NCBI GenBank assembly: GCA_964360585.1
Contig: CAYHXC010000002.1
Span: 5,641 to 69,640, forward strand
DNA length: 64,000 nucleotides
Direction of reading: 5' to 3'
Origin: an uncultured Candidatus Saccharibacteria bacterium
Lineage (GTDB): Bacteria; Patescibacteriota; Minisyncoccia; UBA6257; 2-01-FULL-56-20
The notes below the pieces were generated by a model that ran no database searches, had not been told where the DNA came from, and saw only the letters and a program-made list of their open reading frames with translations. Positions within the stretch are counted from its first letter, which is position 1. The number at the start of each line of letters is the position of its first letter. Below, piece by piece: positions 37,137 to 39,932 of this stretch. The position numbers were made by a program, and so were the translations under genes.

Positions 37137-37218
37137 GCAAACTTGGATTCGATACCTAGCTATTGTACGGAAAAGAGTGGAAAAAGCAACGCAACATATT
37201 CTCCCCTCCTATCACTAT

Positions 37219-37258
37219 TATATAAAACGATCGTTTTATATAATAGTGATAGTGTAAG
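37219..37258. repeat. 40-bp perfect palindrome (atcactattatataaaacgatcgttttatataatagtgat) at the 3' end of the 37260..37856 gene
   Basis: Centred on cgatcg. It shares the core ctattatataaaacgatcgttttatataatag with the copy at 37860..37895. Confidence 0.7.
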
Positions 37259-37259
37259 A

Positions 37260-37856
37260 CTAGATAAGGTGATGGAGAGCACCGGCACTTCCTACTTCAA
37301 AAATCTCGACGTGCTTGCCTAAACCTAGACAATATAAATCCTTAATCAATTCTTTAGGGATTTTTGTTTTGCCGAGCCAAACACTTTTTTGAATTTGTCT
37401 TAACCCCAGTTCGCGAAGAACAAGACGAAGCCAATCTCGCTTACGTCTGTCTTTTTCAGGTATATCGAAAGCAACGATAACTGGTTTACCAATCTTTTCT
37501 GCGTGGTAGTTGGCCAGTGGCAATTCTTCCTTTCGGAATCGCCGATAATCTTCTAAGCGCCTGCGTCCAGTTTTTGTTATAGTAAAGAACTTACCCTTTT
37601 CTTTTTCGTTTTCCGAAATCAAACCTGCCTGCTTCAAATAATAGAGCAGATTGTAGTATCGTTGTTTTTCGCTCGTAGTCTTTCGTAACTTCCTCCCTCG
37701 AGTCCTTCTCTCCTTTTGCACGATATTGGTCATCGCATTTAGTTTTTTGAACGAAGCACCATATCCTGCTCGTAAAAAGGCTTCGAAAAGATCAGTGCTT
37801 GTTACAGCCGCATCCTTCACCGCTTCAAGAATTCTAAAAGTGATATCTCCTCTCAT
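37260..37856 (-). CDS. winged-HTH regulator with Cas2/VapD-like C-terminal domain (PaaX-like architecture)
   Basis: The C-terminal segment VIVAFDIPEKDRRKRDWLRLVLRELGLRQIQKSVWLG resembles the Cas2 core. The N-terminal ~90 aa look like a wHTH. Confidence 0.5.
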   Translation of the reverse strand: MRGDITFRILEAVKDAAVTSTDLFEAFLRAGYGASFKKLNAMTNIVQKERRTRGRKLRKTTSEKQRYYNLLYYLKQAGLISENEKEKGKFFTITKTGRRRLEDYRRFRKEELPLANYHAEKIGKPVIVAFDIPEKDRRKRDWLRLVLRELGLRQIQKSVWLGKTKIPKELIKDLYCLGLGKHVEIFEVGSAGALHHLI

Positions 37857-37859
37857 GTT

Positions 37860-37895
37860 GCTATTATATCAAACGATCGTTTTATATAATAGCAA
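37860..37895. repeat. second copy of the ~36-bp palindrome, at the start codon/promoter side of the 37260..37856 gene
   Basis: Sequence gctattatatcaaacgatcgttttatataatagc. Confidence 0.7.
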
Positions 37896-37898
37896 CGA

Positions 37899-39932
37899 CT
37901 AGGTAAACATATTTAAAAATTCTTTCTCGGAAAGAATTGTGACGCCAAGCTTCTTGGCTTTCTCGTACTTTGAACCCGGTTCAGCACCAACAACAACATA
38001 GGACGTCTTCTTACTCACTGACTCGGAAATTTCTCCGCCCAAGTTACGAATTTTTTCCTTGGCTTCTTCGCGAGACATTTTCTCCATACTGCCAGTTAAC
38101 ACAAACGACTTTCCGAGAAGTGGCTTGGCGCCAGCCACCCTCTCATGTCGGACTCGCACGCCAAACTTCCCTAAAGATCCAAGAAGAGAAACATTTCGGC
38201 CTTCGTGGAACCACCCGTAGATGCTCTCGGCTACCTTCGGACCAATATCCTGAATCTCCTGCAGTTTCTCCAGCGACAATCCTTTGTAGAAATGGGTAAT
38301 GGCCGACACCTCGAGAAACTTCGACTTGCCATACGGCATTTGCATAGCTAAAACACGCGCTGTTTCCTCGCCAACATGCAAGATACCTAAGCTATATAAA
38401 AACCGATTGAGATCAATCTCCTTTCGCTCTTCGATCTCGGCCACAATGTTTTCCGCAGACTTCTCCCCAAACCGCTCCAAGACTTCAATATCTCCTTTCT
38501 TCACTGAAAAAATATCCGAAGCATCGGCGATTAAGCCCTTGTCCAAAAAACGATCAATGATCTTCGAGCCCAAGCCTTCAATATTAAATCCACCGCGCGA
38601 AACAAAGTGATAGAGATTTTCCCGATTCCGAGCGCTGCAGTTTTTATTGGAACAGCGATAGGCCACACCGTCGCGAATAACCGGTGAACCATCTACCGGA
38701 CACTTGGCCGGCATACGGAAGTTTTTCTCCTTACCCGTCCGCAACTCCTTTAAGACTTTCGTAATCTGCGGAATGACATCGCCGGCTCGACTGACGACCA
38801 CGGTGTCACCAATCTTCAAACCTAACCGCTCGATCTCGTCGGCGTTGTGAAGCGTGGCGTGCGTGATCGTTACTCCCCCAACCGAAACTGGCCGCATCAC
38901 CGCCACAGGCGTCAGTGTTCCGGTCCGACCCACCTGGACTTTAACTTCCTCAACAATCGTCGTCGCTTCCCGCGGAGAAAACTTATAGGCGATCGCCCCT
39001 CGCGGTGCTTTACCGATAATACCTCCTTCGTCATAGACCCGATTGTCGTTTATAGAAACCACAATGCCGTCGATATCGTACGGTAACTTTTCCCGCTTCT
39101 CGCCGATCTCCTTATGAAACTGAAAAATGCCTTCTATCCCTTTCACTACACGGCCAGCCGGATTTGGATTAATTCCCCACGACCGCAACGTCTCGTATTC
39201 TTTCTCTCGTTTTGCAAATTGCTCAAGATAGCCACTCCCCTCGCCATAGACACCGTAGGGATAGAAAAACAACCGGCGGGTAGCGGTGATTTTCGGATCC
39301 AACTGACGAAGTGATCCGGCGGCCAGATTCCGTGGATTGGCGTATGCTTTCTCCCCTTTCTTCTCGAGCTCTTTATTGATCCGTTCAAAATCTTTGCGCA
39401 TCAAAAAAACTTCTCCCCGAATATACACTTCACGCGGCACATCGCCGGAAAGCGTTAACGGAATTGCCTCAACGGTTTTTAAGTTCTGCGTAATATCTTC
39501 GCCCACCAAACCGTCGCCACGCGTGCTGCCGGTTTTAAAAACTCCTTTCTCATAAAAAAGTTCGACGGCCAAACCATCCATCTTCGGATCAGCATAAAAC
39601 TCCGCTTTCGGATCTTTCCCTAAATAGTTTATGAGCCGCTCCCACCAAGCCTTCACATCCTCTTCGGAAAAAGAATCATTTAGCGAATTCATCCGCCCGG
39701 GATGCGTGACTTTGCCAAACTTCTTCAGCGGCTCGCCGCCAATCCGCTGGGTTGGAGAGTCGGCAGTAATAAGATCGGGAAAATCCGACTCCAGATCAAA
39801 GAGTTCCTTTTTCAAACTATCCTCCGCTTCAGGCGAGATTAATTCTTTATTCAAAGTCAGCCGCGAGTGACGGTACTTGCTAATCAGCTTCTTCAGGTGC
39901 TCTATTCGCTCCTTAGCTTCCTTTTTAGTCAT
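37899..39932 (-). CDS. ligA: NAD-dependent DNA ligase
   Basis: 677-aa ORF with the adenylation motif (KMDGLAVEL), an OB fold, a Zn finger (CPVDGS...CSNKNC), HhH and a C-terminal BRCT domain. Confidence 0.95.

Follow-up and report, generated by a model that had tools for sequence, protein, structure and literature searches.

A PaaX-type winged-helix/Cas2-fold protein without effector domain and its long CGATCG-centred palindromes in Patescibacteria

A single gene for a small PaaX-like protein, bracketed by two long and closely related palindromes, lies between ligA and a tRNA-Asp gene in a stretch of 64,000 nucleotides (nt) from an uncultured bacterium labelled Candidatus Saccharibacteria (assembly GCA_964360585.1, contig CAYHXC010000002.1, positions 5,641 to 69,640). 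This whole stretch is called the window in the following, and its coordinates are counted from its first letter. The features of the locus are:

37063..37138, minus strand: tRNA-Asp(gtc), downstream neighbour and conserved flank, outside the protein-site system
37209..37252: palindrome P1, 44 base pairs (bp; 22+22), perfect, centre CGATCG, its halves reading CTATCACTATTATATAAAACGA and TCGTTTTATATAATAGTGATAG, located 3' of the PaaX-like gene and 70 nt upstream of tRNA-Asp
37260..37856, minus strand: PaaX-like gene, 198 amino acids (aa), winged helix plus PaaX_M, no PaaX_C
37263..37502, minus strand: codons of the predicted Cas2-like ferredoxin-fold domain, residues 119-198, with an invariant FDIPE motif
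37629..37673, minus strand: codons of the predicted recognition helix, residues 62-76 (SEKQRYYNLLYYLKQ), in which N69 shows covariation with arm position 14 and Y73 with arm position 11
37857..37896: palindrome P2, 40 bp, perfect except for one pair (C at 37870), filling the spacer between ligA and the gene; predicted operator over the gene's promoter
37863..37871, minus strand: predicted extended -10 element TGATATAAT within P2, from direct reading of the sequence
37899..39932, minus strand: ligA (NAD-dependent DNA ligase), upstream neighbour and conserved flank

The PaaX-like gene is the sole open reading frame (ORF) between P1 and P2. A gap of 7 nt separates P1 from its stop codon (37260-37262), P2 directly adjoins its ATG (37854-37856), and 2 nt remain between P2 and the stop codon of ligA (37899-37901). 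A preliminary description of the locus had placed a perfect 40-bp palindrome in contact with the stop codon, a second copy at the start codon and the tRNA-Asp 80 bp away; a perfect palindrome does lie close to the stop, only longer and not touching it, the second copy does abut the ATG, with its one mismatch, and the tRNA gene is indeed the adjacent one, at the shorter distance listed above. P2 belongs to the sequence family of P1, and the two are the longest palindromes of the window. Their 24-nt core occurs in these two places only, where shuffling (100 shuffles) gave an expectation of 0, which together with their top rank in length rules out a chance origin. P1 has a predicted hairpin of -16.4 kcal/mol (z -10.5) as single-stranded DNA (ssDNA).

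Comparison with Pfam matched residues 126-190 of the protein to PaaX_M (PF20803, "PaaX central Cas2-like domain") with an E-value of 4.8e-11 and 43 bits against a cut-off of 24. Its N-terminal half gave only weak, sub-threshold winged-helix matches (HTH_45, PadR), and no match at E<=1 to the winged helix-turn-helix model of PaaX (PF07848). In an AlphaFold2 model calculated from 29 homologues (predicted local distance difference test, pLDDT, 81), the N-terminal half consists of helices, among them a long one extending to residue 76, and a beta-hairpin wing (residues 80-93), and the C-terminal half adopts a ferredoxin-like beta-alpha-beta-beta-alpha-beta arrangement. The top match of this model among PDB structures (Foldseek) was PaaX of E. 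coli (8a39), followed by many Cas2 structures; a sequence search of the PDB returned weak MarR-like and Cas2 matches only. The C-terminal profile of the family (VIVAFDIPE..RRKRDWLR..L..LG...IQKSVW.G) aligns to beta1-alpha1-beta2 of Cas2 with D131 at the position of the catalytic Asp, and the charged residues D131, E134, R140 and R144 are invariant. The combination of a winged-helix N-terminus and a Cas2-like C-terminus proposed in the preliminary description is thus borne out by the PaaX_M match, the structural model, Foldseek and the C-terminal profile.

The resemblance to Cas2 proper comprises the ferredoxin-like fold, the beta1-alpha1-beta2 motif (hhhhFDI...R..L...G...Q.SV) and the Asp at the catalytic position. 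Unlike Cas2, the protein carries a winged-helix fusion and scores narrowly below the thresholds of the Cas2 models (PF09827, 22.2 versus 23.8; TIGR01573, 23.9 versus 24.5), and the PADLOC Cas2 models align to residues 126-166 only, i.e., with their first ~40 residues. No array-like repeats were found in the window and no cas genes among the called neighbours at the related loci L001-L010. The sub-threshold scores and the absence of cas1 and of an array rule out that this is the Cas2 of a CRISPR system. Judging from the sequence matches and the predicted structure, the protein is a truncated PaaX-type architecture of winged helix and Cas2-fold domain, because the C-terminal effector-binding domain of PaaX (PaaX_C, phenylacetyl-CoA) is missing: the chain stops at residue 198, straight after PaaX_M, and full-length homologues span 190-205 aa. 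With this domain missing, no ligand-sensing domain is evident.

The family is large, with 329 matches in a word-indexed search and 682 representative clusters (defined at 50% identity) at E<=1e-30. Nearly all records that name an organism stem from Patescibacteria (Wolfe-, Lipton-, Jorgensen- and Paceibacteria), the sole exception in the word-indexed search being P0050, labelled Lokiarchaeia, and public records frequently label family members "Cas2." The protein diverges faster than its neighbours, with 56-63% identity where the neighbouring XerC-like protein is 80-90% identical, which fits a co-drift of the protein with its sites. A divergent 191-aa paralogue, with a PaaX_M-like C-terminus (MVFFDIPETKR...QKSIWVS) and an unrelated N-terminus, was observed at L139 (3163-3836), where two sites bracket the gene directly after ligA.

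Loci of relatives were collected by exact protein look-up (10) and from a metagenome scan (80), and about 100 homologous loci were compared in all. Homologues at 40-51% identity are almost always flanked, on one or both sides, by CGATCG-centred palindromes with arms of 16-23 nt, many of them free of mismatches. The arm sequences are lineage-specific (e.g., TTACTATCCTATC, TGTACACCATTC, ACTCTAATATTAT, ACTCGCCTAATC) and the two copies at one locus resemble each other, with a third copy present at L019, L046 and L059. The palindrome is therefore not private to the locus in the window, as is also clear from the genome scans described below. Alignment of 172 distinct sites, whose centre is invariant by construction as they were gathered by an exact scan for CGATCG, revealed a constant register: position 4 (counted from the centre) is mostly T, positions 5-8 are the least conserved of the arm (0.06-0.6 bits), positions 9-17 are conserved (consensus TA..ATAGT), and the symmetry of the arms declines beyond position 19-20. 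The sites thus consist of inverted outer blocks, about 22-26 bp apart, inside palindromes of 38-46 bp. At L051 (2950-2995) the upstream site has an altered centre, CGACCG, and retains the outer blocks and TATAAT; an intact CGATCG is therefore not indispensable at the autoregulatory site. At L003 (4620-4670) the half-site TTACTAT(A/T)GT recurs as additional direct repeats ahead of the downstream palindrome, which suggests further binding units. At two loci (L046, 3629-4355; L134, 2228-2989) two sites also surround a neighbouring gene, whose 167-aa product has a winged helix similar to the LexA N-terminus; on its opposite side the family gene is next to a gene for a CheY-like receiver.

A link between protein and palindromes emerged when every column of the protein alignment was compared with every arm position of the adjacent sites for 64 distinct proteins. 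The highest mutual information of all pairs was that of residue 73 (window numbering, in the motif YYNLLY-Y73-LK) and arm position 11: proteins with K or R at this residue have a purine at position 11, usually as G11 G12, and those with Y, Q, V, W, H or T have a pyrimidine, an agreement that holds for 60 of the 64 loci. On a tree calculated from the C-terminal domain alone, the residue and the base each change about 12-13 times, and simulation of more than 10,000 characters with comparable numbers of changes produced no case of equal agreement. Residue 69 (N, K/R or S) pairs with position 14 (T, G or C, respectively) at 50 of the 64 loci, which was matched by 0 of 4017 simulations. The two residues are one helical turn apart (i, i+4) in the helix preceding the wing, and their bases are 3 bp apart. 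Such covariation points to direct readout of the major groove by the protein.

The palindromes upstream of the gene differ from the others in ways that suggest autorepression through an embedded promoter. They usually end 0-30 nt ahead of the ATG, and 26% of them are symmetric at no fewer than 19 of 20 positions, versus 51% of the stand-alone sites. A promoter score of at least 9 out of 12 in the direction of the gene was obtained for 46% of the upstream sites. The share fell to 13% when these were read the other way, and was 10-11% among downstream sites and 2% among random 60-mers. A sigma70-like -35 element (TTGACG or TTGCGA) begins 6-7 nt left of the centre and thus overlaps CGATCG, and, after a spacer of 17-18 nt, the outer end of the arm nearer to the gene holds TATAAT or TAAAAT. 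P2 of the window has no good -35 element. The TG of its predicted extended -10 element is created by the single asymmetric base of the palindrome. With the end of TATAAT 6 nt ahead of the A of the start codon, no room is left for a Shine-Dalgarno sequence, and the mRNA is predicted to be leaderless. These promoters, together with the covariation of recognition helix and site, agree with the autoregulated operator that had been proposed as one option for the locus.

An arrangement of this kind is known from PaaX, whose operator in E. coli, TGATTC-N27-GAATCA, consists of widely spaced inverted repeats over about 39 bp (PMC9493321) and which represses its own promoter through steric hindrance of RNA polymerase (PMC9493321). 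The proteins of E. coli and Pseudomonas (PDB 8a39, 3l09), which respond to phenylacetyl-CoA, have in common with the family described here a winged helix at the N-terminus ahead of the Cas2-like PaaX_M, and the layout of the operator, with wide-spaced inverted repeats overlapping promoters including their own (binding being predicted in our case). They differ in size (about 305-316 aa with the effector domain, versus 198 aa) and in the N-terminus, which in our protein fails the PaaX model of Pfam. Furthermore, the sites here are near-perfect palindromes over their full length with CGATCG at the centre, besides the two around the gene there are dispersed ones, unconnected with a catabolic operon, and the family is restricted to Patescibacteria in our sample, bar the one record mentioned above.

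In a scan with the degenerate pattern YACTAT-N9-CGATCG-N9-ATAGTR, using one genome per species, we found 92 sites on 79 stretches of 30 assemblies, with 1-9 sites per assembly on different contigs. All of these assemblies are bins of Patescibacteria, a few with doubtful "Saccharibacteria" or "Gammaproteobacteria" labels. Further copies of the palindrome, which the preliminary description had recommended looking for, therefore do exist as a dispersed family, and only 25 of the 92 sites adjoin the family gene. The counts per genome are lower bounds, because the pattern is strict and many sites lie at the ends of contigs. Such sites at contig extremes were observed at L098 (29-64), L101 (5306-5341), L114 (2-37), L158 (11-46) and L161 (2-37), and contigs of about 0.9-1.4 kb carry many of the family genes. 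Short-read assemblies evidently break at the palindromes, and the number of sites per genome is underestimated as a result.

Almost all of the 92 sites (87) are intergenic. Among 148 sites with two called neighbours, 100 lie between tandem, 34 between convergent and 14 between divergent genes, and in the sampled loci 18% of the convergent junctions are occupied, versus 7-8% of the tandem or divergent ones. Median distances are 49 nt from site to gene end and 73 nt from site to gene start, so that sites lie nearer to the ends. The flanking genes of stand-alone sites fall into 126 clusters from 152 proteins, which rules out a conserved regulon, and the 30 that are annotated represent mixed housekeeping functions (tRNA synthetases, tRNA modification, DNA repair, glycolysis, cell wall). 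No evidence was found that sites cluster at the origin or terminus of replication, and the cumulative GC skew is smooth through the locus of the window. In number and position the sites recall those of RTP/Ter in B. subtilis, Tus/Ter in E. coli and ParB/parS, in which small DNA-binding proteins occupy about 5-10 specific non-promoter sites on the chromosome, and the genes for RTP, Tus and ParB also adjoin one or two of their own, autoregulating sites. Ter sites are asymmetric and polar, unlike the palindromes here, and the protein families differ.

Comparison of the loci also revealed rearrangements with endpoints at the palindromes. An XerC-like protein is encoded next to the family gene at 43 of 105 family loci. 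At 21 loci (e.g., L013) xerC is followed by a site, the family gene in the same orientation, a second site and an opposing tRNA-Leu(tag), and at 16 loci (e.g., L030, L031, L076/77) by the mirror arrangement, in which the gene points toward xerC. Between L013 and L030 only the segment between the palindromes is flipped, with the flanking proteins 80-89% and XerC 86% identical, and no fewer than two clades have the flipped arrangement. The family proteins of these two loci are 60% identical; the gap to their flanking proteins is common to all locus pairs irrespective of orientation. A replacement of the cassette as the cause of the low identity at inverted loci is ruled out by this equal gap in pairs of the same orientation, and the family protein therefore simply evolves fast. 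The tRNA-Asp neighbourhood of the window was also found in relatives, once filled (L051, ligA-site-gene-site-tRNA-Asp, as in the window) and once empty: in the Liptonbacteria locus L104, a ligA whose product is 60% identical to LigA of the window is followed by a single perfect palindrome, about 75 nt and tRNA-Asp, and the family gene of this genome is located beside tRNA-Leu at L131. The inversion and the filled and empty junctions indicate that the palindromes served as breakpoints for inversion and relocation. As a separate observation, the XerC/D-like recombinase beside the family gene at L001 (1742-3910) contains an intein with a LAGLIDADG endonuclease and has 722 aa, versus 302 aa in relatives.

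No signs of transposition accompany these events. No target-site duplication was found at any boundary or length tested, and no homology past the palindromes. The gene is single copy in every sampled assembly, no HUH/Y1 transposase family was matched in the ORF between the palindromes, and neither the protein nor the palindrome pattern was found in the viral contigs of IMG/VR. An insertion of transposon type and an origin from phages or mobile elements were rejected on these grounds. Within species no polymorphism of orientation was observed, all 118 locus pairs with XerC at least 97% identical being oriented alike, and both inversion and relocation are sufficiently explained by occasional homologous recombination between repeats of 40 bp. 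The gene and its palindromes are thus a conserved protein-and-site system and not a transposon. The minimal cassette resembling ssDNA transposons and the recent integration beside a tRNA gene, both considered in the preliminary description, were not upheld, the latter in view of the xerC-gene-tRNA-Leu and ligA-gene-tRNA-Asp neighbourhoods, which are old and conserved; a weak form of cassette behaviour is nevertheless real, given the inversion of the bracketed gene and the filled and empty junctions. The repeat formed by P1 and P2 seemingly continues for 13 nt past the palindrome (37200-37212 and 37846-37858, TCTCCCCTCCTAT and TCTCCTCTCATGT, 10/13 identical). Nothing comparable was seen across 53 other loci and, as there is no similarity past the palindromes elsewhere, this extension is probably due to chance.

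Taken together, the comparisons suggest that the protein most likely recognises the near-perfect 40-bp palindromes, and we favour, with moderate confidence, an autoregulated binding protein of the PaaX type with dispersed cognate sites that double as recombination breakpoints. By analogy with PaaX, the Cas2-fold domain would serve as a dimerisation module, and we infer that a dimer would bind the 38-46-bp CGATCG-centred palindromes, in which each subunit would use its recognition helix to read the outer block of a single arm, at about positions 9-17 counted outward. As the upstream palindrome overlaps the promoter of the gene, binding there would switch the gene off (negative autoregulation), and a protein bound at P2 would cover the entire promoter. 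The downstream palindrome and the 1-9 or more genomic copies would be additional binding sites, mostly just 3' of genes or between convergent genes, whose likeliest roles might be those of transcription barriers or insulators, or of architectural sites. The bracketing sites could act as breakpoints of inversion and relocation because they repeat each other in direct as well as inverted orientation.

Several observations weigh against this interpretation, the support for which is wholly comparative. Arm positions 5 and 6 carry almost no information (0.06 and 0.16 bits) and yet are complementary in 72-74% of the sites, versus 27-31% expected, and the sites of one genome vary at these positions with each remaining symmetric. 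Pairing here is not needed for a plain dimer site and rather suggests the formation of hairpins or cruciforms, or correction of one arm by the other; template-switch correction can keep long quasi-palindromes perfect, as known from quasipalindrome mutagenesis in general. Moreover, the contacts of the recognition helix do not account for the CGATCG centre (invariant through the design of the scan), and the invariant charged residues of the Cas2-like domain seem more than dimerisation alone would require. There is no promoter to regulate at the 34 sites between convergent genes, the preference for such junctions goes beyond what simple repression accounts for, and no coherent regulon is apparent.

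Alternatively, the locus might be a dedicated recombination cassette, in which the palindromes would be crossover sites (6-bp centre, symmetric arms) for the XerC-like recombinase or a Cas2-like nuclease, and the gene with one site would excise, invert and re-insert at other palindromes, as do the pdif modules of Acinetobacter plasmids or integron cassettes. The gene inverted between conserved flanks, the filled and empty ligA/tRNA-Asp junctions, the frequent XerC-like neighbour and the alignment of D131 with the catalytic Asp of Cas2 would all be expected, and in the pdif modules, too, genes lie between short sites that are partly palindromic around a 6-bp centre, the modules occurring in both orientations and at various sites. 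We nevertheless consider this unlikely, since the gene is chromosomal and single copy, with neither target-site duplication nor homology past the palindromes nor polymorphism of orientation within species, and recombination is deduced here from the comparison of loci. Xer sites have 28 bp, comprising two 11-bp arms bound by the recombinase and a central region of 6-8 bp, and are best conserved beside the centre, where tyrosine recombinases bind most specifically, whereas these inner arm positions are the most variable ones here. The events are rare over deep time, such that ordinary homologous recombination would suffice, and the XerC-like gene may be a mere housekeeping enzyme of an old neighbourhood. 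Even more doubtful, in our opinion, is a combined scheme, in which tightly bound palindromes at gene 3' ends would block transcription in both directions or organise the chromosome, forming a so far undescribed genome-wide system with the protein, and the Cas2-like domain would be catalytic at CGATCG, keeping the palindromes perfect and driving the inversion and relocation of the gene. If true, this would represent a domesticated or still active mobile cassette built on a Cas2-fold nuclease instead of a transposase.

The palindromes could also function as hairpins in RNA or ssDNA at the 3' ends of genes (bidirectional terminators, elements of processing or stability) that the protein binds or cuts. 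Their closeness to gene ends, the enrichment at convergent junctions, the pairing kept at positions with no sequence preference and the stability of the predicted folds would be in line with this, as would the fact that relatives among Cas2 and VapD include RNases. However, no U-tract follows the stem, and the flanks tend toward TTTTAC...GTAAAA, opposite to what an intrinsic terminator would have. G.U pairs are not in excess among the mismatches when the transcribed strand is considered (51 G.T, 41 A.C, 72 others), and a strand-specific RNA structure was rejected on this ground. The would-be loop is the self-complementary CGATCG, as expected of duplex DNA under a symmetric dimer, and with 1-9 or more sites per genome the palindromes cannot be a general terminator. 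A search of Rfam gave only spurious matches to microRNA hairpins far below threshold. Terminators in particular were rejected, including the hairpin terminator suggested for the window in the preliminary description: the stems are A+T-rich with no T-run after them, the sequence tends to be T-rich before the stem and A-rich after it, and a consensus scan called neither P1 nor P2. In view of the absent G.U bias and U-tract we regard a role in RNA termination or processing as very improbable. The same low probability is assigned to a selfish system similar to REP/RAYT (TnpA-REP), in which the palindromes would be spreading dispersed repeats and the bracketed gene their mobilising or domesticated partner. 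In both cases a single-copy gene is located between two palindromic repeats and the repeat is dispersed intergenically with a preference for gene 3' ends, here also for convergent junctions; the lack of a conserved regulon and the fast divergence of protein and sites relative to their neighbours would suit such a system as well. In contrast to REP/RAYT, there is no HUH tyrosine transposase domain and no target-site duplication, the copies counted, as a lower bound, come to about ten per genome and not hundreds, the repeats are perfect palindromes on a fixed hexamer, and some site-bearing junctions have been kept across distant genomes (e.g., ligA/tRNA-Asp at 60% identity of LigA). The residue-base covariation points instead to a winged helix reading duplex DNA, as assumed for the autoregulated PaaX-type protein.

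Searches of the literature on PaaX and Cas2, PaaX in Patescibacteria and palindromes of Patescibacteria yielded no description of the family or of its sites. What is new here is a PaaX-type protein of winged helix and Cas2 fold that lacks the effector domain, with long and almost perfect palindromes that bracket and probably autoregulate its gene and are also dispersed. Very few regulators have been characterised in Patescibacteria, and the system offers a concrete pair of protein and site, in which a simple code of recognition links residue 73 to base 11 and residue 69 to base 14 and the promoter is predicted to be autoregulatory. The sites go beyond an ordinary operator in being almost perfectly symmetric around CGATCG, in favouring convergent junctions and in the inversion and relocation of the gene they bracket, and they may represent chromosomal barriers or recombination sites of a new type. 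In addition, the widespread labelling of this large family as "Cas2" inflates the counts of CRISPR components in these poorly understood ultra-small bacteria.

Apart from the locus itself, three short G-rich tandem repeats with units of 14 nt were noticed within a 3-kb stretch of the window (GGGTAGAGGGTTAA, 43536-43569; TAGGGGTTAGTGGG, 44516-44548; AGGGCTTAGGGTCG, 46839-46870), each present in 2.3-2.5 copies.

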